A stretch of 63,314 bases of DNA, counting the filler, from Eubacteriales bacterium (lineage in GTDB: Bacteria > Bacillota > Clostridia > Oscillospirales > CAG-382), in NCBI GenBank assembly GCA_045636665.1. It is 8 parts of 8 records of this genome, joined end to end, with 100 filler letters (N's around TTAATTAATTAA, not from the genome) between each part and the next. Parts side by side here need not be neighbours in the genome. Positions count along the whole stretch, not along the records: positions 1 to 23,378 come from JAZTXY010000071.1; 7 more parts are not named here. One strand, 5' to 3'. This document shows, piece after piece, positions 1-11,190 of this stretch. The notes beneath the pieces were generated by a model. It was given only the letters and a program-made list of their open reading frames with translations. It was not told the DNA's origin and ran no database searches. Numbering within the stretch: the stretch's first letter is position 1; each line of letters starts with the position of its first letter. The translations under genes were made by a program, and so were the position numbers.

Positions 1-13
1 CAAAATGCACAAC

Positions 14-23
14 GGGGGGGGGG
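14..23. repeat. G10 homopolymer upstream of the fibre cluster
   Basis: Ten consecutive G at 14-23, about 20 nt upstream of a TATATT hexamer (45-50). Confidence 0.9.
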
Positions 24-164
24 TACAACCCTATCTCGTTTGGCTATATTACACAACGCTTGTGGAGGCGTTCTCGACCTAACTAACTGCCTCCGTTCAT
101 TGGCGCTGACGGAGTGCAGTTCTGCACTTGCGCCAATGAAAATATTAAGGAGGTCATAGGTAAT

Positions 165-1697
165 ATGACAAAAGTAACCAAACGCGCACTTCTCACAAGC
201 GCACTCGCACTTGTTGTTTGTGTTTCTATGCTCATCGGCACCACCTACGCGTGGTTCACCGACAGCGTTGTTTCCAACAACAACATTATCAAGTCCGGTA
301 GTCTTGACATCGCAATGGAATGGGCTAACGGCTCTGAAGCTCCCGCAACCGCAACTTGGACTGACGCTTCCACCGGCCCCATCTTCGATAATGACCTTTG
401 GGAACCCGGCTACACCGAAGCAAGACACATCAAAATCACCAACAAGGGCACTCTTGCACTCAACTGGACTCTCGCAATCGTTCCTAACGGCGAAGTTTCC
501 GCACTCGCTGACGTAATCGACGTTTACTACTATGATGGCTATGGTTACGGTCATGCAAAGCAAGTTATTGATCGTAACGTAACAGGTATGGAATACGTTG
601 GTACTCTCCGCGAATGGCTCAGCGCAGGTATCGATAAAGGTTTCCTTGATGCCGGCAAATCCTTCTCCGCAACTATCGTTCTTAAGATGAGAGAAGAAGC
701 AGGCAACGAATATCAAAACCTTTCTATCGGCGACAGCTTCTCTGTTCAACTCCTTGCAACTCAGAGAACTTATGAATCCGACAGCTTCGACGAAGATTAT
801 GACGTAGGCGCAAGCAAGACTCTCGTTACTCCCGCAACTGCACAGGCAGCTATCTGGGCAGCTAAAGAAGGCGATGTAATCTATCTTGACCATGGCAAAT
901 ATGGTAATCTCGTTATCGAAAACGAAGATGGTTCTTCCAAGAAGGGTATCACTATCGAACACGATTCTCCCAAAAATCCTTACAATGAACCCCTTACTGT
1001 TGCATCTATCAACTTGAACGGCTCTGAAAATATCACAATCCGTGGTATCTTCTTTGCTGCTGAACAAGCTGAACGCGTTTATAGTAAGAAGTCCGGCGAA
1101 ACCAATTATTACGCAAGCATCATCGGTTCTAAAAAAGATGGCAACACCGGCGCGAAGAACATCGTGATCGACAACTGCCGCTTCGCTAAAGATGGCTCAT
1201 ATTGGGATGAAAGCACTGTTAACCCCAATAACTACGTTCCTGTTTGCTTCGAAGAACAAGGTCGTCCCACCAGCCGCGCTACTAACATCATCGTTGAGAA
1301 TTGTTATGTAGACGTTGAAGTATTCAACTTCGTTCGCGCAAACTATATGGCTGATGGCTTTGTAACCGTTCAGAACAATCAACTTATTAATGCAACCAGA
1401 CACAGTGTTATCAACTTGACCGGCAACGCTGCTAACATCTATGTAAGAGACAACGGCATCAAGGGTTGGAACCCTGAAAAGGCAATGCTCGGTACCTCTT
1501 GGCAGGATAAAGTTGTTGATATCGTTGTTACCGGTAATACCATCGCTCCTCGTGCAGCACTTACCGGTGAAGGCGTAGTTCTTGATATCAAGCCTTCCTA
1601 CACCAAGGATAACTGCAACATTACCTTTGAAGGCAATACCTTCGGTGGCACACTTGCTGGTTTGAACGAATCTACCGTTCCTTGCAACAGACCTTAA
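165..1697 (+). CDS. SipW-dependent-type signal peptide protein: TasA/camelysin-like N-domain plus C-terminal parallel beta-helix
   Basis: AAGGAGG RBS before ATG 165; signal ends GTTYA-WFTD; WEPG..I.ITNKGTLAL TasA-like motif; C-half has AQAAI..AKEGDVIYLDHGKYG and Asn/Ile-rich beta-helix turns. Confidence 0.8.
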   Translation: MTKVTKRALLTSALALVVCVSMLIGTTYAWFTDSVVSNNNIIKSGSLDIAMEWANGSEAPATATWTDASTGPIFDNDLWEPGYTEARHIKITNKGTLALNWTLAIVPNGEVSALADVIDVYYYDGYGYGHAKQVIDRNVTGMEYVGTLREWLSAGIDKGFLDAGKSFSATIVLKMREEAGNEYQNLSIGDSFSVQLLATQRTYESDSFDEDYDVGASKTLVTPATAQAAIWAAKEGDVIYLDHGKYGNLVIENEDGSSKKGITIEHDSPKNPYNEPLTVASINLNGSENITIRGIFFAAEQAERVYSKKSGETNYYASIIGSKKDGNTGAKNIVIDNCRFAKDGSYWDESTVNPNNYVPVCFEEQGRPTSRATNIIVENCYVDVEVFNFVRANYMADGFVTVQNNQLINATRHSVINLTGNAANIYVRDNGIKGWNPEKAMLGTSWQDKVVDIVVTGNTIAPRAALTGEGVVLDIKPSYTKDNCNITFEGNTFGGTLAGLNESTVPCNRP

Positions 1698-1713
1698 TCA
1701 ACTAAGAAAATAA

Positions 1714-1791
1714 GCCCGTCCCGACTCCTTTCGGGGAGTCGGGCGGTAAGCAAAGGGTATAAAACCTAATGCTTGTATCTTTTGCTTGCCG
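1714..1791 (+). other. Intergenic tandem double stem-loop, copy 1
   Basis: CCCGACTCC/GGAGTCGGG (1720-1743) followed by an 18-bp stem CGGTAAGCAAAGGGTATA/TGTATCTTTTGCTTGCCG (1744-1791). Confidence 0.7.
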
Positions 1792-1932
1792 AGGGCAAAA
1801 ACCCAAGGCAAAAGTAAAAGGCGAACCCGTCATTCGCCCAAGCTTTAAATTGTCATATTACCTATGAATTTCGGTTAGTTTTTTAATTTGAACCAAAAAA
1901 ATTAAAAAAATAATTCATAGGAGAAAATTACA

Positions 1933-4281
1933 ATGGCTAAAAATGCAACAAAGCGCGCTTTAATTTCCAGCGCTCTTGCACTTCTTGTTTGCGTTTCTAT
2001 GCTCATCGGCACCACCTACGCGTGGTTCACCGACAGCGTAGTTTCCAACAACAACATTATCACTGCTGGCAACTTAGATCTCGAAGTTGAATACACTCTC
2101 GATGGCGAGAATTGGGATACCCTTGATGGCGCAGACGACCTCTTCCAAAAGGGTCTTTGGGAACCCGGCCACACCGAAGTAGTAGCTCTTAAAGTTACTA
2201 ACGCAGGTACCTTGGCATTTAAGTACACCGCAAATATGAATATCGTTAACGAAGTTATCGGTACCAGCGTTGAAGGCAACGATATCGTTCTTTCCGATAT
2301 TCTTACCGTTAGCACTGTAACCCAACAGGTAAACCAAATTGGCGATATTTTGCTCAATATGGTTTTCAATGGTGCTGAAAACACTGATAAAGGCAGTGCA
2401 AAGAGCTTTAAGTCCGCAAATGTTCTTCAGGAAACTACTGAGCTTTTAGCAGGCGATTCGCACTATATCATCATTACTGTTGATATGGCAGAAACCGTTG
2501 GCAACGAAGCTAACTACCGCGGCGATAAAATTCCTTCTATCGAATTCGGTATCAACGTATTTGCTACTCAGTACACTTATGAAAATGATACCTTCGGCAA
2601 TGACTATGACTTGAACGCACCTTGGACCGGTGAAGTAGATACCGCTTGGTACAACACTACTGACACTGAATTTGTTCTTGAGTCTGCTGAAGAATTTGCC
2701 GGCTTTGCTGCTCTCGTAAACAACGGCACCGAATATTTCGAAGGCAAGACCATTAAGCTCGGTAGAAATATCGACCTTAATAACCTCGAATGGACTCCTA
2801 TCGGTTCCGCTACTCTCGATCACGGCTTCATGGGTAACTTCGATGGTAATGGCAAGACCATTTCCAATCTTACCATTAACAACATCGCACTCGATGCAGA
2901 TGGCTATGCATACGCTGGTTTGTTCGGTGTTACCGAAGGCGCAGCTGGTGCAGAGAATGAAATTAAGAATCTCACCATCAAGAACGTTACCATTAACACC
3001 ACTGGCGCTATCGTAGCTGCAGCAATCGCATACCCCTACTACACCACTTTGAGCAACATCACTGTTTGCGGCGATATTGCTATCACCGGTGGCGACTACA
3101 CCTCCGGCGTTCTTGCTTACACAAGACGTTGCACAACCGCAAGCAATATTACCATTAACGGTAACGCAGGTTCTTACATCACCGGTAAACAAGTCGTTGG
3201 TGGTGTCATTTCTGACATCCAGATGAACGGCGGCTTAAAGGCTAACTATTCTAACTTCTCCGCTTCCAACCTCACCATCACCGGTGACAAGATGGTTGGT
3301 GGTATCTCCGGTATTATCTGTAACCAAACTCTCAATGGCGCTAACGTTAATAACGTTACCCTCGTTTGCTCCGATAATCGTGTAGGTATTGTTTCCGGTT
3401 CGTTTGATACCAATCCTGTTATCAACAATGTAAAACATAGCAATGTTACCGGCGCAACCTCTATTGTAGGTGCTCCTTACGGCACGACTGGCGGCAATAT
3501 TACCATCGATGGCAAGGAATGCATTGGTGATGTAGTTTCGCTCCAAGCAGCTATTAATGAAGCTAAAGACGGCGATGTTATCACTCTCGGCGCTAGCATC
3601 TCCGGTAACGTAACTGTTGCTCAGAAGCCCGGCGTAGTTGTTACCATCGATGGTAACGGCAGCGAATTCAAGGGTGGTCTGCTTGTTGACGGCGGTTCTA
3701 ATGCATCCGCTGACGAAGGCATTATCATTCAGAATGTTGTTTTCACCGGCACTCTTCCCAGTGGCGTTGACGCTTGCATCAGATTGGGTGAACAGGGCAA
3801 CAACAACACCCGTTACACCAGTAACGTAACCATTAAGGATTGCATCTTTGATATCGAAGGCGCAGTAGGCATTAAGTCCTACACTGGTGGCGACAAGAAC
3901 CTTACCATCATCAATTGCGTTGCAACCGAAAAGGCTCACTCCTTGCTTCAGGCAAAGGGTATCGACGGCATTGAAGTTGTAGGTTGCGAAGTTTATTCCA
4001 AGAATGGTCTTAACTTCAACAACAGCACTAACGTAATCGTTGATGATTGTAACGTTGACGTTAAGGGTTATGCAGTTCGTTTCGGCGAAGGCTCTGTTGC
4101 AGACACTAATGCTGAAACCTACCTTATCAAGGATTGCACTTTGAAGTCTGCTTGCGCTGAGTCCGACGATGCTGTAATCGTTCTTCGTGGCACTGCTGCC
4201 AATGCAACTCTTACCATCACCAACACCACCCTTGTTGGCACTAATGAAATCGCTAACAACACTAACGCAACTGTTAAATAA
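1933..4281 (+). CDS. SipW-dependent-type signal peptide protein: TasA-like N-domain plus GLUG-like/beta-helix adhesin region
   Basis: GTTYA-WFTD signal, WEPGHTEV..LKVTNAGTLA, then WTPIG..F.GNFDGNGKTISNL..GLFG adhesin motif and a second beta-helix. Confidence 0.8.
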   Translation: MAKNATKRALISSALALLVCVSMLIGTTYAWFTDSVVSNNNIITAGNLDLEVEYTLDGENWDTLDGADDLFQKGLWEPGHTEVVALKVTNAGTLAFKYTANMNIVNEVIGTSVEGNDIVLSDILTVSTVTQQVNQIGDILLNMVFNGAENTDKGSAKSFKSANVLQETTELLAGDSHYIIITVDMAETVGNEANYRGDKIPSIEFGINVFATQYTYENDTFGNDYDLNAPWTGEVDTAWYNTTDTEFVLESAEEFAGFAALVNNGTEYFEGKTIKLGRNIDLNNLEWTPIGSATLDHGFMGNFDGNGKTISNLTINNIALDADGYAYAGLFGVTEGAAGAENEIKNLTIKNVTINTTGAIVAAAIAYPYYTTLSNITVCGDIAITGGDYTSGVLAYTRRCTTASNITINGNAGSYITGKQVVGGVISDIQMNGGLKANYSNFSASNLTITGDKMVGGISGIICNQTLNGANVNNVTLVCSDNRVGIVSGSFDTNPVINNVKHSNVTGATSIVGAPYGTTGGNITIDGKECIGDVVSLQAAINEAKDGDVITLGASISGNVTVAQKPGVVVTIDGNGSEFKGGLLVDGGSNASADEGIIIQNVVFTGTLPSGVDACIRLGEQGNNNTRYTSNVTIKDCIFDIEGAVGIKSYTGGDKNLTIINCVATEKAHSLLQAKGIDGIEVVGCEVYSKNGLNFNNSTNVIVDDCNVDVKGYAVRFGEGSVADTNAETYLIKDCTLKSACAESDDAVIVLRGTAANATLTITNTTLVGTNEIANNTNATVK

Positions 4282-4300
4282 TTAACTTAAGTTAATTCAA

Positions 4301-4372
4301 GCCACCCGTCCTTAAACGGACGGGCGGCAATCAAGGTACATAAGTTTAAATATTTATGTATCTTGATTGCTG
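4301..4372 (+). other. Intergenic tandem double stem-loop, copy 2
   Basis: GCCACCCGTCC/GGACGGGCGGC (4301-4328) overlapping a 19-bp stem CGGCAATCAAGGTACATAA/TTATGTATCTTGATTGCTG (4325-4372). Confidence 0.7.
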
Positions 4373-4406
4373 AATCATTCAATAATATAAAAAGGAGGTC
4401 ATTAAA

Positions 4407-4970
4407 TTGGCAAAAATTAAGATAAGAATATTCGTCGTAGCGCTTGTGGCAACTCTTATGGCGTTTTTTAGCCAATCCACCCTCGCCTTCTATTCGACAG
4501 TAGGTACTGCCACCAACGTTGTGACCTCCGGTAATATCCGTTTTATAATCAACGAAACGACCGACCAAGGAACTGCGTTCCCCGAGGAAGGTGTTTATAT
4601 CGTACCCGGTGATATCGTTTCCAAGAAGGTTAACATTACAAGCGATTGCGAGCATCCCTTCTATCTTCGTGTTAAGATAATCTATGGTATTAACTCCGAA
4701 GAGCTCACGGCAGAGGATTGCTTCAAGCTCAACGTTAACGAAGCCGATTGGGAGCTTCGCGACGGTTGGTATTACTACAAGGGAATCGTTAACCCCAACG
4801 AAACCACGCCCGACATTTTCTCGCACGTTGAAATCGTCGGCGCAAAGGTTGATAACAGCTATATCGGCAAGACCTTGAACCTTACAGTTAAAGCGCAAGC
4901 CGTTCAGAGCGAAAACAATCCGCTTCCCGACGGCAACACCCATTCCGCCTCCGGTTGGCCCAAGGAATAA
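4407..4970 (+). CDS. Small SipW-dependent biofilm matrix/fibre subunit (BsaA/TasA-like)
   Basis: AGGAGG plus TTG start; STLA-FYS...TNVVTSGNI, PGDIVSKKV, YLRVKI, DGWYYY, AQAVQS motifs. Confidence 0.75.
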   Translation: MAKIKIRIFVVALVATLMAFFSQSTLAFYSTVGTATNVVTSGNIRFIINETTDQGTAFPEEGVYIVPGDIVSKKVNITSDCEHPFYLRVKIIYGINSEELTAEDCFKLNVNEADWELRDGWYYYKGIVNPNETTPDIFSHVEIVGAKVDNSYIGKTLNLTVKAQAVQSENNPLPDGNTHSASGWPKE

Positions 4971-4983
4971 GGAGGTTTTGTAG

Positions 4984-5652
4984 ATGAAAAAGCTATTTTT
5001 GGTATTTATCGTTTGCATCCTCGCTCTTTCCTCGATGCTCACCGCAAGCGCGGATAACGGCAAGGTTACTTACAGCGGAAATGCAGGAAACTTTATTTTC
5101 GCACCGGGAAGTGACTATTCGCTTACCGATTTGTTCCCGAATTTCAAGGGAGTTATGCCCGGCGACACTTTGACCCAACAAATCACGGTTAAAAACGATG
5201 CCGATGATAAGGTTAAGGTGAAAATTTATATCCGTTCCAAAGGCGCGCACGAGAATTCTGTCGATTTTCTTTCCCAGCTTCACCTTACCGTGAAGACGAG
5301 CGAAGAAAACGAAATGGCATATATGTTCGATGCCGCTGCGAATGAAACCGCACAGCTTACCGAATGGACTTATCTCGGCTTGCTTTATTCGGGCGGTGAA
5401 GTCAACTTGGACGTTAATTTGACCGTTCCTGTTGAGCTTGACAACCAATATCAAGACCAAATCGGATATCTTGATTGGGAATTTATGGTCGAGGAAATGC
5501 CTGCCGAGCCCGACGATCCTGTAAAGCCGGGCGACGACAGCAACAAGCTTTTCTATATCACGTTAATGCTTGGTTCTGTAATATTTTTGATTATTCTTTT
5601 GGCTTGGCGTAAAAAGGATAAGGAGAAAAAACAAAACACTGCACAATTCTAA
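4984..5652 (+). CDS. TasA-like protein with C-terminal sortase-like sorting signal
   Basis: Standard Sec signal (TASA); MPGDTLTQQITVKN motif; C-terminal VKPGD, hydrophobic helix and RKKDKEKK tail. Confidence 0.65.
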   Translation: MKKLFLVFIVCILALSSMLTASADNGKVTYSGNAGNFIFAPGSDYSLTDLFPNFKGVMPGDTLTQQITVKNDADDKVKVKIYIRSKGAHENSVDFLSQLHLTVKTSEENEMAYMFDAAANETAQLTEWTYLGLLYSGGEVNLDVNLTVPVELDNQYQDQIGYLDWEFMVEEMPAEPDDPVKPGDDSNKLFYITLMLGSVIFLIILLAWRKKDKEKKQNTAQF

Positions 5653-5667
5653 CAAAGGGGGAATAAA

Positions 5668-6321
5668 GTGGTGTCGAATTTAAAGAAAAAACCGTATAAA
5701 AAGATCGCTTTAGCCCTCAGCTTGTGCTTTCTCATCGTTTGGGGCATACTCGGTACGGGCGCATCGCTTGCGTGGTTTACCGATACCTCGAACGAGCTAA
5801 ACAACATTTTCCATTTTGCCGATTTCGAGCTTAAGGTTTCTCACCGCACCGAGGACGGAAATTGGGAAGTTGTTGACAGCGAGACCAAAATTTTCGATGA
5901 AAACGCTTTATACGAACCGGGCTACGTTCAGGTTGTGTATTTAAAGGTTGAAAATTTGGGCGACCGTCCGTTTACCTTCCACACCGCGGTGAACGTAAAC
6001 GATTGCGTTATTGCTACAAACGTGTTCGGTCATAAGTTTATGTTGCAGGATTTCTTGAAGTTCGGTGTTGCATCTGCAGATACCGAAGCAGAAATGGATA
6101 ACAGCGTTATCAGCCGCGACAAGGCGGTTCAAATCGCAAATATGCCCTTGCATAATTATTACGAAACCGATACGGCTGTTTTGGACGCTAACGGTACAAA
6201 GTATATTGCATTAATCGTTCGTATGCCCGAGGAGGTTACAAACGTTGCGAATTACCGCGGCGAAGACATTCCGAAGGTTGATTTGGGTATCACGGTTAAA
6301 GCAGAACAAATTAAGAACTAA
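5668..6321 (+). CDS. SipW-dependent-type TasA-like subunit
   Basis: ASLA-WFTD signal, LYEPGYVQVVYLKVENLG, MPEEV.N.ANYRG; similar to the N-domain of 1933-4281. Confidence 0.75.
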   Translation: MVSNLKKKPYKKIALALSLCFLIVWGILGTGASLAWFTDTSNELNNIFHFADFELKVSHRTEDGNWEVVDSETKIFDENALYEPGYVQVVYLKVENLGDRPFTFHTAVNVNDCVIATNVFGHKFMLQDFLKFGVASADTEAEMDNSVISRDKAVQIANMPLHNYYETDTAVLDANGTKYIALIVRMPEEVTNVANYRGEDIPKVDLGITVKAEQIKN

Positions 6322-6357
6322 CACGTCCGGAGTACTCTTTGAAAGGAGGTTTAGCTT

Positions 6358-7350
6358 GTGAGAAAACTGTATAACGAATTTTTTGCTGTTTCAGAAAACG
6401 GAAGAATACGTGAAAAAGTAATGATTGCTCGTGTAGTTTTGACAGTAACAGTTATGGTTGTCTGCTTAGCGGCAATGAGTATGACTGCTTATGCATATTT
6501 TTCTCACGAAGTTGTTACCTCTAATAATATAATTAAATCTGCCGAATTTTCGATTGAAGTAACATCCCAAGACGTAGATATTACAGCGGTCAACAGCAAG
6601 ACCTTTACTGCAAATTTAACGGGTGGTAGTACCTATACTTTCACCGTTAAGGGCAGTGGCGATGCTACAACAGGATTTTGCACCGTTTCTGCATCTGATT
6701 GCTATGACGGAACTTATCACACCAGACAAATCTATAAAAACAACGAGGGATATGATGTAATCAGTTTCTCGATCAAACCCACGAAGGATACTGTTGTAAC
6801 GATTACGGCACATTGGGGAACTTCTTCCAAATATCAAGAGTTCCAAGAAAACGGTGTTGCTAAGTTGTATATCAATGACAAAGACACGGTCGAAATGAGC
6901 ATCGGCACACCTCCTGCGTTTAAAGCACCCAGACCTTCCGTTGACAATACCGACGATAACGAAAGTAACGAAGATAATGCCGACGTAAGCGACGAAATCA
7001 TCGAAGAAAGCACCGACGAGAGTGTTGACGAAAGTACCGACGAAGGTACTGACGAAGGTACCGACGAGTCGCAACCTACCGTTAACGAAAACGGTGAAAT
7101 TATCCATATCGTAAAAGATGGCGAAAATCTTTCGAGAATAGCTAATCTTTACGGACGTAATTCGCGCGACCTTGCTTATTATAACGAATTGAAAAATCCC
7201 GACACCATAAAGGTCGGTCAAGAGATTATAATACCGCCTTCCGATTGGAAGCGGCCGAAGGATGAGGTTGAGTCTTCACCCGAAGCGTCAACACCCGAAG
7301 CGTCAACACCCGACGAATCGACTGCGGTCGAAAACGAAAGTTCACAATGA
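6358..7350 (+). CDS. SipW-type subunit with acidic linker and LysM domain
   Basis: TAYA-YFS..VVTSNNIIKS; DE-rich spacer; HIVKDGENLSRIA..YG....LAYYN.LKNPDTIKVGQEIIIP matches LysM. Confidence 0.8.
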   Translation: MRKLYNEFFAVSENGRIREKVMIARVVLTVTVMVVCLAAMSMTAYAYFSHEVVTSNNIIKSAEFSIEVTSQDVDITAVNSKTFTANLTGGSTYTFTVKGSGDATTGFCTVSASDCYDGTYHTRQIYKNNEGYDVISFSIKPTKDTVVTITAHWGTSSKYQEFQENGVAKLYINDKDTVEMSIGTPPAFKAPRPSVDNTDDNESNEDNADVSDEIIEESTDESVDESTDEGTDEGTDESQPTVNENGEIIHIVKDGENLSRIANLYGRNSRDLAYYNELKNPDTIKVGQEIIIPPSDWKRPKDEVESSPEASTPEASTPDESTAVENESSQ

Positions 7351-7592: not shown

Positions 7593-9353
7593 TTACTTGC
7601 TTGTTTCAGAAATAAACATTTCGATCTGGTCGGTAATGGTCTTAAGACTTTCGCGCCAGAACTCGGGACGTGTTAGATCGATTCCGGCAATAGCGGCTAC
7701 GTTTTCAACAGTGTCAACCGTTGTAGCACGGAGAAGCTCGCGGTATTTGGGAAGGAACGCTTCGCCTTCTTCAAGATACTTGGCGTAAAGTCCGCGCGAG
7801 AAAAGACCGCCGAATGCGTAGGGGAAGTTGTAATAGCTTAATCCTGCGCGGTAGTAATGACTCTTGCAGCACCACATATAAGGGTGTAAGCATTCGGGAT
7901 CGAGTCCGTCGCCGTACGCTTCCTTTTGCGCGTTTGTCATTATCTTTTCAAGCTCGTTGGCATAAAGGAAGGTGTCATTTCTGCGGCGAATAACCTCATC
8001 TTCAAACAGGAATCGCGAGTAGATATCAACGATGATCTGAGTCGAATCCTGAATCTGGCTTTCAATCAGCTGAATCTTTTCTTCGCCCTCGGATTTGGCA
8101 ATAGCATCGTTTACGATAATAAGCTCGTTAAAGTTCGACGCAGTTTCGGCAACGGGCATTGTGTATCCGGTGTTAAGAGGACGGTGTGACTGAATCTGCT
8201 GACCGTGGTATGCGTGTCCGAGCTCGTGTGCGAGAGTTACGACCGAGCCGAAGCTTCCTGAGAAGTTAGTAAGAATTCTGCTCTGACCGACAAAGGGAAG
8301 ATTGGAGCAGAATGCACCGCCCACTTTACCTGCACGCGGATAAAAGTCAATCCATTCCTCATTAAACGCGCGGTCTACCATTTCGGCAAGATCGGGCGCG
8401 AAGGTTGCAAAGTGCTCTACAAGATACTTATGCGCGTCCTCAACCGAAAAACTTTCGCTGCCTGCCTTCCCCATAGGAGCCAATATTTCGTACCAAGGAA
8501 GCCCGTTTTCGTATCCCAGAAGCTTTGCCTTGTGACGGAGATACTTTCTGAAAGCAGGCATTGCCTCGCGCATTGCTTCAAGCATGGCATCAAGCGTTGC
8601 TTTCTCCATACGGGACTGCTTAAGAGTCATCGCAAGAGGATCGGCATATCCGCGAAGCTCTGCTTCAAGATTAACCTGTGCCTTTATACTGTTAAGAGCG
8701 AATGCGATGGAATCCTTTATCTTGTCATAGCAAGCGATCTCGGCTTCAAATGCCGACTTTCGCACAGCAGGATCTTCGCTGTCAGCAAGACCTCGTATAG
8801 CGGAGAGAGAAGTTACCTCGCCATTATAATCCACCTTGACAGTGGACGTAAGGTGCGAGAACAGATCGCCCCACGCCTTGCCGCCGGATATGTTCATCTT
8901 TGCGAAAAGAGCTTCTGCCTCGTCGCTCATCATATGTGATATGTCATTTTTTATTTCTTCAAAGTAGAATTTATATTGCGAAAGAAGCTCGTCGGATTCA
9001 ATAACGCTGTCAAGATCATCAAGATTTCCCGCAAATTTCTCGAACATTACGTTGTCCTTTGTGGTGGATGCGATCATGGCAGAGATCTTTGTCAGGTACG
9101 ATGCACCCTCTGCGTCACTGCTGTCGGCAGAACGGCGAAGACTGAAATATCCCGCAAGTTTGCGCACCAAAACGGTCAGCTCCTCCTTAACCTCGATAAC
9201 GTTTCTGAGCGTTTTAGCCGCATTATCCTTGTCAAGTGCAGCAACGGTTTCACCGAAAACGGAAATGAGCGTCTTAAAGCGCTCCATATCAGATGCAAGA
9301 TTCGGGTCGTCGATACCGCGGTAAAGCACGTCAAGTGACCAAGTGTTGTACAT
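7593..9353 (-). CDS. pepF: M3B oligoendopeptidase F
   Basis: HELGHAYH zinc motif, GK.GGAFC, AETASNFNE, YNFPYAFG; AAAGGAG RBS before ATG 9353. Confidence 0.9.
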   Translation of the reverse strand: MYNTWSLDVLYRGIDDPNLASDMERFKTLISVFGETVAALDKDNAAKTLRNVIEVKEELTVLVRKLAGYFSLRRSADSSDAEGASYLTKISAMIASTTKDNVMFEKFAGNLDDLDSVIESDELLSQYKFYFEEIKNDISHMMSDEAEALFAKMNISGGKAWGDLFSHLTSTVKVDYNGEVTSLSAIRGLADSEDPAVRKSAFEAEIACYDKIKDSIAFALNSIKAQVNLEAELRGYADPLAMTLKQSRMEKATLDAMLEAMREAMPAFRKYLRHKAKLLGYENGLPWYEILAPMGKAGSESFSVEDAHKYLVEHFATFAPDLAEMVDRAFNEEWIDFYPRAGKVGGAFCSNLPFVGQSRILTNFSGSFGSVVTLAHELGHAYHGQQIQSHRPLNTGYTMPVAETASNFNELIIVNDAIAKSEGEEKIQLIESQIQDSTQIIVDIYSRFLFEDEVIRRRNDTFLYANELEKIMTNAQKEAYGDGLDPECLHPYMWCCKSHYYRAGLSYYNFPYAFGGLFSRGLYAKYLEEGEAFLPKYRELLRATTVDTVENVAAIAGIDLTRPEFWRESLKTITDQIEMFISETSK

Positions 9354-9438
9354 ATCGTTTGCTCCTTTACAGTCGTTTAAATTTGTTTTAAACATTATAT
9401 CATTAAAAAACGGCTTTTTCAATAACAAAACGAAGCTA

Positions 9439-9544: not shown

Positions 9545-10339
9545 ATGAGCGATAAATTTTTATTTTTCAGTTCTGAAACCACACCTCCCGCAGGACAGTT
9601 ATTGTCTGATATTTATCTTCCTATAGAAACAGAATTTAATCGAAAGTTTAGCGAAAAAAATTACGGTACAGAACTGGATAGAGTAGCTATAATTTGCGTT
9701 TGTTTTGCAAAAGAATGGATTGACTACAATCCTATTAATGAACGCAAATACGTTAGTAAAAAAAACAGATATGCCGATTTTCGTTTGTCATTGGATTTTG
9801 AACAATTCATGAAAGCTGATAATGATGCCCGTGAAAAGCTATTTCTTGATTTGGTCAAAAATGCTATCGACGTTCTATGTTTGCGTTTGCCAACTTTTTC
9901 AAAACATGAATTTCTTGACGATCTCAGTGAAATTGTTGAATCGGTCAAACAAAACGATAAGAGAAAACAAAGTGTTTCAAACACAATTTGTATAGATAGT
10001 CGTTTTATATTTATCGCAAATCACTGCCCTGAATATATAGGTGGAAACGAAGTTGAGCAAAGTCAAATATTGTCGAATATATATGATTCAATATCCGAAG
10101 ATATATCGGAAGAAGAACGCATTTCTATATTTATTAATCATGTTAATAAGACTTTTAATATAGAAGATGAACATTATCCCAAATGGACAGAAGCTCCCGA
10201 ATGGCCTGTATGTAACGGAATACCAATGAAATTCATATCCCAGAAGAGGGATATGGGTAATTCGGGTGATATCCGCACCGAGTATGTATTCGAAGATATT
10301 TTCACAGGAGAACAACGGATTGTTGAACAATTCACTTGA
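9545..10339 (+). CDS. Hypothetical fusion: Imm44-like immunity N-domain plus C-domain paralogous to the next gene
   Basis: N-half resembles Imm44-type proteins (NYG.EL..I.II.C, ADFRL.LDF..F); C-half CPEYIGG..YPKW.EAPEWP..PMKF.SQK..GEQRIVEQFT. Confidence 0.5.
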   Translation: MSDKFLFFSSETTPPAGQLLSDIYLPIETEFNRKFSEKNYGTELDRVAIICVCFAKEWIDYNPINERKYVSKKNRYADFRLSLDFEQFMKADNDAREKLFLDLVKNAIDVLCLRLPTFSKHEFLDDLSEIVESVKQNDKRKQSVSNTICIDSRFIFIANHCPEYIGGNEVEQSQILSNIYDSISEDISEEERISIFINHVNKTFNIEDEHYPKWTEAPEWPVCNGIPMKFISQKRDMGNSGDIRTEYVFEDIFTGEQRIVEQFT

Positions 10340-10346: not shown

Positions 10347-10503
10347 CTCATGCATAATGGTGTTAACGGAAAACATACAGTATTGCATTTAAAAGACACC
10401 TTTCAAACTCGAAACTGTGAAAGAGTTATTAGAAAAGTTGCTATGTAGTTGTGAACCGAACCGTTAAAAACGGTTCGGTTGCATGACAATAAAGAGGGTA
10501 ATT

Positions 10504-11190
10504 ATGGAAAATATAAAATCGTATTTAATTGATTTTGCAGAAGGTCGAGTTGAAGTTTCTGACTTTCTCGATTATTGTAAAATACATCCGGAGGTTCTTG
10601 ATTTTCTTACAAGCATAGCAGATACGAAATTCAAGACAACGATTGTGCATAAAGTAAGGGACGAAAATGGCTTTACCCAGTACATTCCCGAACAATTGCC
10701 GTTCGACGCTAAATTATTCATAGATGAAGAAACTAAGACTAATGGCGGAACGATAGGAAAATATTTTAATATCCATGATCTGTTTTCAAATGTGTTGGTT
10801 GCCGCATTTCCGCACGAAAACATCATTATTGATGAAACTTTGCATGAGAAATATTGTTTTATGTTGGATGCTTGCCCCGAGTATATCGGCGGCGAACAAG
10901 CGGATGAATTGATAGAACAATTGTTAGAATCGCTTCCTAAAGAGTTGAGCAAAACAAAACGCATCAAACTTTTTAAAGAGCAAGTGAAGGAATTATTCCA
11001 TATTGAATCAAACAAATATCCGAGATGGATCCAAAGTCCGGAATGGCCGATTGGAGAAAACGGTGTTCCTATGCGATTTGTTTCTCAAAAACGAAAAAAA
11101 GGCAAAGAGTATGAAACCATTCTATATACAGAGTTTTTGTTTGAGGATGTAAAAACCGGAGAACAACGGATTGTTGAACAATTCACTTGA
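10504..11190 (+). CDS. Hypothetical protein, possibly YwqG/DUF1963-like immunity-related
   Basis: YPRWIQSPEWP..PMRFVSQ motif; paralog of the C-half of the upstream gene. Confidence 0.5.
   Translation: MENIKSYLIDFAEGRVEVSDFLDYCKIHPEVLDFLTSIADTKFKTTIVHKVRDENGFTQYIPEQLPFDAKLFIDEETKTNGGTIGKYFNIHDLFSNVLVAAFPHENIIIDETLHEKYCFMLDACPEYIGGEQADELIEQLLESLPKELSKTKRIKLFKEQVKELFHIESNKYPRWIQSPEWPIGENGVPMRFVSQKRKKGKEYETILYTEFLFEDVKTGEQRIVEQFT

Follow-up and report, generated by a model that had tools for sequence, protein, structure and literature searches.

Our data suggest that six neighbouring genes in the genome of an uncultured gut member of the Clostridia are probably the distal part of an operon-like locus that builds a SipW-dependent surface fibre of the TasA/BsaA type. 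The genes, here called g1 to g6, lie at positions 165-7350, all on the plus strand, of a 63,314-nucleotide DNA window from Eubacteriales bacterium (assembly GCA_045636665.1), and all six products are exported proteins. The large subunits of this and related loci consist of a conserved N-terminal domain (N-domain) and a variable cargo, a predicted beta-helix here and BspA-type leucine-rich repeats (LRR), a beta-helix or another module in relatives, whose genomes are titled Eubacteriales, Acutalibacteraceae or Faecousia. The window, which is the whole stretch analysed, is a composite of contigs joined by runs of N, and its positions 1-23378 are one contig (C71); the source metagenome-assembled genome (MAG; G000) comprises 1.82 Mb in 139 contigs and is 80% complete. 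From C71, a second contig of this MAG (C40) and the loci of relatives, we reconstruct the likely gene order as tetR, sipWA, sipWB, T (encoding a seventh TasA-like protein), a possible inserted stretch, and g1-g6 (Table 1).

Five of the six window proteins (g1, g2, g3, g5 and g6) have SipW-type N-termini, with the cleavage motifs TTYA-WFTD (g1 and g2), TLA-FYST (g3), SLA-WFTD (g5) and AYA-YFSH (g6); in g3 and g6 the motif is recognised by inspection alone. A first-pass annotation of this DNA had listed six co-oriented genes with five such motifs, and all the motifs it quoted are present in the sequence. It also credited most of the proteins with a TasA-like PG motif; we found PG-x(5-9)-[IVL]-x-[NS] in g1 to g5 (5/6), but not in g6. 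The remaining gene, g4, which that annotation implied to be the only one outside the SipW pattern, indeed encodes an ordinary Sec-type signal without a SipW motif. The last four genes, g3 to g6, are separated by 13 to 36 bases.

Family membership is clearest for the two large proteins. Hidden Markov model searches placed g1 and g2 above the gathering cut-off of PF12389 (Peptidase_M73; 28.1 and 31.2 bits, respectively, against 22.5) and above the cut-off of TIGR04088 (SipW-dependent signal; 24.8 and 30.3 bits against 19), confirming their proposed place in the TasA/camelysin family; g3 to g6 have no direct match to PF12389. The AlphaFold 2 model of g1 (pLDDT 84.0) has a confident N-domain, values above 90 for residues 217-510 and values below 50 for residues 25-43, and this disordered segment behaves in the model as expected of an unpaired donor strand that follows a signal peptide. 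Foldseek matched the g1 model to a TasA fibre chain (8aur_A; probability 1.00, E 1.7e-3, TM 0.34) and to an archaeal bundling pilin (7ueg_A; probability 1.00, TM within 0.34-0.37). The assigned start of g1 (ATG at 165) is backed by a strong ribosome-binding site and by the starts of its homologues, and we identified 2686 relatives of g1 among metagenome proteins.

The smaller subunits fall beside these large ones. Over its whole length, the g5 protein aligns with the N-domains of the large proteins, both g1 and g2 and the big subunits in relatives, and the invariant columns that it has in common with the big N-domains include the P-G and N positions and the start of the strand, W-F-T-D; against TIGR04088 it reaches 17.5 bits, slightly short of 19. 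For g3, TIGR04090 (BsaA family) gives 21.7 bits, below the cut-off of 60, yet 41/41 sampled members of its family match that model at E <= 0.01 (best 5.8e-18), so we regard g3 as a distant relative of BsaA and not as a member by the curated score. Among the same 41 proteins, 19 match TIGR04088 and four match the TasA model; the family as a whole holds 1473 representative clusters at E <= 0.001. By profile alignment, the g3 family is homologous to M73-class N-domains (hhalign against those of g1, g2 and g5: probability 97.1%, E 6.7e-11, 168 columns). Two related TasA-like classes are present in the locus, an M73 class (g1, g2 and g5) and a BsaA class (T and g3). Family positions N37 (37/41), E50 (27/41) and K73 (26/41) of g3 make up a candidate isopeptide triad, which may or may not correspond to N35-E56-K74 of BsaA.

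SipW-type peptidases are encoded next to these subunits. A search of the whole MAG with TIGR02228 (archaeal/endoplasmic reticulum-type signal peptidase) yielded two matches, scoring 105.4 and 68.8 bits (cut-off 51.85), and the two genes lie in tandem on C40, at most 3.3 kb from the contig end. Profile searches of the MAG found TasA-like genes on C71 and C40 only, so that its only two SipW-type peptidases adjoin its only TasA-like genes. SipWA and SipWB keep the serine and histidine boxes across 25 SipWA and 39 SipWB orthologues; in the same set SipWB conserves a G-D-x-N box, and SipWA conserves G-T-T-T at that place together with a 13-residue insert.

We found that C40 and C71 are neighbours, because in two close relatives, L027 and L028, the last 500 bases of C40 (to 191 from its end) and the opening 300 bases of C71 have their matches side by side, with a slight overlap. 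The opening 13 bases of C71 occur a second time on C40, at 192-204 bases from its end, and g1 begins 164 bases in from the C71 end. In a genus mate (G003; pepF 98% identical), tetR-sipWA-sipWB-T-big-g3-g4-g5-g6 is contiguous, and three other genomes, including one that belongs to a different family, have the same contiguous order. The earlier guess that a sipW gene may lie upstream was thus correct: two SipW-type genes stand at the C40 end, and C40-like and C71-like DNA is continuous in close relatives. The last 191 bases of C40 (L003 1-191, minus strand) differ in sequence from the relatives and hold a promoter-like site, a ribosome-binding site and the start of a gene (MKKILS...) whose remainder lies beyond the contig; either an additional gene has been inserted there, between T and g1, or the stretch is a strain variant. 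Around tetR, we observed a 26-nt inverted pair, 81% complementary and 715 nt apart (C40 3355-3380 and 4096-4121, in L003), which recurs in L028 (2392-2417 and 3133-3158). Its upstream arm contains a perfect 14-bp palindrome just upstream of a promoter-like site, so the pair may be more like a TetR operator than a DNA-inversion site; the tetR leader also holds two copies of a 14-nt direct repeat.

Table 1 Features of the locus on the window (contig C71) and on contig C40.
Feature	Position	Strand	Description
g1 5' leader	1..164	+	G10 run at 14-23; structured, strongly conserved; begins at contig end
g1	165..1697	+	510 aa; SipW-type signal, TasA/M73-like N-domain (~30-215), predicted right-handed beta-helix (217-510)
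g2	1933..4281	+	782 aa; SipW-type signal, TasA/M73-like N-domain, middle repeat region, C-terminal region homologous to g1 cargo
g3	4407..4970	+	187 aa; minimal BsaA-class subunit
g4	4984..5652	+	222 aa; Sec-type signal, C-terminal membrane helix, basic tail; degenerate sortase motif
g5	5668..6321	+	217 aa; minimal M73-class subunit, cargo-free
g6	6358..7350	+	330 aa; long signal-anchor, SipW-like motif, donor-strand-like N-terminus, own ~120 aa domain, acidic linker, LysM (250-293)
Oligoendopeptidase-like gene	7593-9428		Convergent with the cluster; follows g6
tetR	C40, toward its end		TetR-family regulator
sipWA	C40, toward its end		SipWA, 266 aa
sipWB	C40, toward its end		SipWB, 233 aa
T	C40, toward its end		437 aa; seventh TasA-like protein; motif GTLA-WFTAS; own C-terminal extension

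Relatives of g4 mark 325 stretches in one-genome-per-species collections, and we examined the best 80 loci, all of them from MAGs titled Eubacteriales, Acutalibacteraceae, Faecousia, Oscillospiraceae or Clostridia. These loci were picked through g4, so all locus counts are conditional on g4; their genes are simple open reading frame calls, classified by BLAST against the window proteins. The recurring order is [tetR] sipWA [big] sipWB T big(1-3) g3 g4 g5 g6, where "big" denotes a large subunit gene, and the synteny check proposed by the first-pass annotation thus shows gene set and order conserved in 80 loci of other species. g3 is directly upstream of g4 in 72/72 testable loci, g5 is directly downstream of g4 in 77/78, and g6 is present after g5 in 66/72; g3-g4-g5-g6 is an almost invariant module. 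Among the 37 loci with at least 9 kb of upstream DNA, 34 have SipW (26 of them both paralogues), 33 have T, and all 37 have at least one big subunit; in the three SipW-less loci the flank is filled by big genes of 1780-2015 aa. The number of big genes between sipWB and g4 is one in 23 loci, two in 17 and three in 2, and a further big gene stands between sipWA and sipWB in 15/30. This recurrent multi-gene order exceeds tapA-sipW-tasA in complexity, as the first-pass annotation had claimed.

The cargo carried by the big subunits, which range from 396 to 2015 aa in length, is varied. Residues 217-510 of g1 are modelled as a right-handed parallel beta-helix. A fold search with g1 returned 300 chains at Z >= 8; the VIA match list is dominated by the beta-helix, and the N-domain is barely sampled there. 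Residues 217-510 match the PL6 alginate lyase 6kfn (VIA; Z 22.2, rmsd 2.8, 234 aligned residues) and the pneumococcal adhesin PfbA (VIA; Z 19.9), and other top matches, at Z 17.7-22.2, include chondroitinase B, pectate lyases, GH87, GH110 and phage depolymerases. The Pfam Beta_helix family has no match in g1 or g2 themselves, and the middle region of g2 has only a sub-threshold match, to Peptidase_M26_N (17.2 against 27.7). The last third of g2 is 25% identical to the g1 cargo over 180 residues (E 3e-7). The two large, unrelated beta-helix extensions described at first pass are therefore both real as extensions, and that of g1 is a beta-helix in its model, but the last third of g2 is distantly homologous to the g1 cargo. 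In a domain scan of 64/104 big subunits from the relatives (E <= 0.001), 47 contain Peptidase_M73, 10 Beta_helix and 10 BspA-type LRR_5, and 11 match no family; M26_N (3), Pectate_lyase_5 (2), DUF4957 (2) and Glug, NosD and Hint (1 each) are rarer. The description of these proteins as cargo-bearing subunits holds, on the g1 model and on the variety of domains in relatives. Eight loci (L042, L044, L055, L057, L081, L084, L102 and L104) encode cargo subunits of giant size (1780-2015 aa) that have a TasA-like N-domain, and that of L042 has a weak match to a Hint module near its C-terminus.

In a comparison with L027, the nearest relative of the window, identity is 92-96% for g3, g4, g5 and sipWB, 71% for T and 63% for g6, whereas the big genes align only piecemeal, at 39-59%; the cargo region is therefore changing much faster than the core. 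The leader of g1 has a mean column identity of 91% against L027 and L028, above that of coding DNA. Its run of G residues is G10 in the window and G12 in L027 and is interrupted in L028, and the RNA fold of positions 24-170 has a minimum free energy of -45.9 kcal/mol (z -3.0). The leader may be a slipped-strand switch or a regulatory leader. An Rfam scan of positions 1-23378 matched no family, and a promoter and terminator scan found sites no more numerous than in shuffles.

The beta-helix matches raise the alternative that the fibre, or a set of separate proteins, displays active glycan-degrading enzymes, with the putative beta-helices of g1 and g2 acting as a surface polysaccharide lyase or hydrolase in a loosely cellulosome-like arrangement. 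The top matches of the g1 cargo are to the alginate and pectate lyases, chondroitinase B, glycoside hydrolases (GH87 and GH110) and phage depolymerases named above, and the organism and its relatives come from gut metagenomes. However, the non-enzymatic adhesin PfbA has the same fold at Z 19.9, none of the CAZyme or lyase families in Pfam is matched by g1 or g2, and the cargo of relatives is as often the BspA-type LRR, a binding module (10/64), as a beta-helix. We consider this enzyme-display alternative unlikely.

We identified 3376 relatives of g4 among metagenome proteins, and NCBI lists one of these as an LPXTG anchor protein. In 73/80 of the g4 relatives at the examined loci, a P-x-T-G motif, most commonly PPQTGD, precedes the helix and basic tail; this PPxTG form may resemble the motif of clostridial class B sortases. 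In the window g4 and its two nearest relatives the motif is replaced by KPGDD, a small deletion having removed the threonine, and the helix and basic tail are kept; a sortase sorting-signal test on the window g4 was accordingly negative. The idea of an anchor subunit thus stands for the relatives but not, as a sortase substrate, for the window protein, which, its sorting motif being deleted, is probably anchored only in the membrane. None of the subunits apart from g4 has a sorting signal. The only sortase match in the MAG is on contig C91 (42.8 bits). G000 and G003, both ~80% complete, have one weak sortase match each, and G020 and G021 have an extra match of 84 bits; this difference suggests a link with the lost g4 motif, in genomes too incomplete to conclude from.

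g4 is probably a divergent TasA-like beta-sandwich. With its model (pLDDT 68.7), a fold search of 48,161 representative chains ranked TasA fibre chain 8aur_A first (Z 6.9). The g3-family profile matches g4 at E 2.6e-4, and hhalign relates g4 to the g3 family with a probability of 96% over 23 columns, which contain a common PGD...V.N strand. We also observed a second kind of cluster in the same genus (L014 on G021 C4 and L017 on G020 C20), with five or six small TasA-like genes bearing the N-terminal motifs TIAWLTS, TLAWLV and TLAYF, the last gene being a g4 homologue that carries LPPTGD as its signal; anchors of the g4 type are thus not confined to a single kind of TasA-like array.

The last gene, g6, is TapA-like in layout only, with its signal, strand-like N-terminus and wall-binding part. 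Its LysM domain scores 42 bits, and LysM is found in 15/69 g6 relatives. Against TIGR04087 (TapA), g6 reaches 13.7 bits, below the curated cut-off of 80. hhalign relates g6 to the subunit N-domains with a probability of 94% over 79 columns, which cover the signal and first strands only. Complex predictions of the mature g3, g5 and g6 N-domain, each with the g4 ectodomain, scored 0.79, 0.83 and 0.79. Controls scored 0.00 and 0.00 with the partner replaced and 0.85 with g5 replaced; because of the last value the complex score is not specific, and it counts neither for nor against binding.

Published work on related fibres describes donor-strand exchange as the drive of TasA assembly (PMC9674648), TapA as a strand-donating starter (PMC10151520), and strand exchange followed by an isopeptide lock in BsaA (PMC11580942). 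A 2025 preprint places relatives of TasA and BsaA often in operons with LPXTG proteins, signal peptidases and sortases, and takes the presence of several paralogues per operon to suggest heteropolymers (PMC11580942). From the membership of our proteins in this family, we infer donor-strand polymerisation and the co-polymerisation of different subunits. By analogy, export through Sec would be followed by SipW cleavage, which would free an N-terminal strand (WFTD..NN.I..G.L), and the freed strand would complete the beta-sandwich of the next subunit to build the fibre. Cargo subunits would join the same polymer through their conserved N-domain, with their adhesin- or enzyme-like modules facing outward. 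g6 would be a TapA-like, strand-donating starter whose LysM domain holds the fibre on peptidoglycan, and g4 an envelope anchor, linked to the wall by sortase in most species. SipWA and SipWB may each serve one subunit class, going by the order sipWA-big and sipWB-T in 15/30 loci.

We compared this locus with known systems. Like the BsaA system, it has a dedicated SipW, several TasA-like paralogues per operon and a small subunit of the BsaA class (the g3 family, TIGR04090), and the TasA-like partner with a sortase signal in that system has its parallel in the g4 relatives. Unlike that system, it has two conserved SipW paralogues where BsaA has one, one to three cargo-fused big subunits (396-2015 aa), a final TapA-like gene that encodes LysM, and a TetR regulator where BsaA has the BsaRS two-component system, and it lacks the vWA protein BsaC. 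With B. subtilis tapA-sipW-tasA (8aur) it has in common the SipW-type signal peptides, the PF12389 domain and a last gene of TapA layout; as in TasA, the N-terminal segment is free in the g1 monomer model, and 8aur_A matches g1 and comes first for g4. It differs in that no significant sequence match to TasA was found in the Protein Data Bank (PDB) and g6 fails the TapA model (13.7 against 80), and in having at least 10 genes in place of three, cargo-fused subunits and a sortase-type anchor.

Two further comparisons are more distant. Chaperone-usher pili (Fim and Pap) offer an analogy only, with an N-terminal donor strand, minor subunits and adhesins made of a pilin-like and a binding domain; FimH, FmlH and PapG domains are among the weak fold matches of g4. 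Unlike those pili, the present locus has no chaperone, usher or outer membrane, its processing is of the SipW type, and the families are unrelated by sequence. Sortase pili of the SpaA/BcpA type are, likewise, Gram-positive surface fibres with a basal subunit that carries a sorting signal (as in g4 relatives), but here the locus has no pilin-specific sortase, the sorting signal occurs in g4 relatives only, and polymerisation is presumed to be non-covalent, by strand exchange. Our literature search found nothing on cargo-fused TasA subunits, paired SipW paralogues or this Oscillospirales cluster, although Figure 9C and the supplements of PMC11580942 may show such operons. The kind of fibre is thus known, and this elaborate form is a real, widespread and uncharacterised variant of it.

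Several points weigh against the fibre reading. The structural match of the g1 N-domain to TasA is weak (TM 0.34), and PDB sequence and profile searches with g1, g2 and an N-domain profile gave no significant match to TasA; the best PDB match of the g3 profile is AbpX, at E 0.044. g3, g5 and g6 fall under the curated cut-offs of TIGR04090, TIGR04088 and TIGR04087, respectively. The TasA match of g4, first or second in rank at Z 6.9, lies within 1 Z unit of Bd1399, the FimH/FmlH lectin domains and other unrelated sandwiches, and with no sorting motif in the window g4 a wall-anchor role cannot be assumed here. C40 runs 191 bases past the point at which relatives enter C71-like DNA, so C40 and C71 may be separated by an insertion of unspecified length or by a strain variant. 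Expression is backed by RNA-library contigs over g2, which may include DNA, and the cargo could be enzymes and not adhesins. Finally, strand insertion and polymerisation are argued by analogy. Of the heteropolymeric TasA-type fibre first proposed for these genes, family membership, cargo, SipW and elaboration have stood up; the heteropolymer and strand insertion are proposals, and the beta-helices may bind glycans or cleave them.

A second alternative, which we judge improbable, is that there is no single heteropolymer. One or two homopolymeric matrix fibres, for example of T or g3 alone, would then coexist with g1 and g2 as separate adhesins or enzymes, their N-domain being an export and stalk module or homo-oligomerising. 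BsaA of C. perfringens polymerises alone and BsaB stays out of BsaA oligomers (PMC11580942, PMC7395162); two subunit classes with two peptidase paralogues would also fit two separate assemblies, and mixed polymers are proposed for our locus by analogy. On the other side, the big subunits share with g5 its invariant positions, among them the motif of the N-terminal strand, and the four-gene module always comes with a big gene (37/37 loci with enough flank). The N-terminus of g6 also resembles the subunit strand, which suggests strand donation across classes. The last alternative, that the proteins are camelysin-type metalloproteases (MEROPS M73), as the Pfam name of PF12389 might imply, can be dismissed: HExxH occurs in 0/7 of the proteins (g1 to g6 and T), TasA itself is a fibre subunit, and PMC11580942 deems the peptidase assignment of CalY a likely misidentification.

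RNA-library contigs from one study cover most of g2 and parts of g1 and leave g3-g6 almost uncovered, a gap to which we attach no meaning; in three libraries of that study, contigs span positions 2007-3935, within g2. The share of words is at most 0.19 in every run, and the data are contigs and hence carry no strand or operon structure. Beyond the oligoendopeptidase-like gene that follows g6, we observed two paralogous genes at 9545-10339 (264 aa) and 10483-11190 (235 aa), which have a common C-terminal ...GEQRIVEQFT. The pair lies in a stretch of low GC content (0.34-0.39, against 0.43-0.48 around it) that may be a small island.

Returning to the TasA/BsaA-type fibre, we tentatively raise a bolder possibility, which we hold to be somewhat less likely than not to be right: that it represents a third type of Gram-positive pilus. 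Donor strands freed by two specialised SipW paralogues would build the shaft, a LysM-bound, TapA-like protein would start it, a TasA-like protein with a sortase signal would tie it to the envelope, and interchangeable cargo subunits of up to 2015 aa, bearing LRR, beta-helix or enzyme-like modules, would line it. Such a pilus would be a modular display scaffold of uncultured gut Clostridia, with its cargo swapped between close species and possibly switched by the G run. Known TasA-type fibres are plain, one-subunit biofilm scaffolds. Here one to three genes per locus join the polymerising domain to large, fast-changing binding or enzyme modules, and the domain is combined with its own starter, anchor and two peptidases. 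If the subunits do co-polymerise, the fibre would account for the attachment of abundant uncultured gut Clostridia to particles, mucus or other cells, and it would be a natural self-assembling display scaffold.

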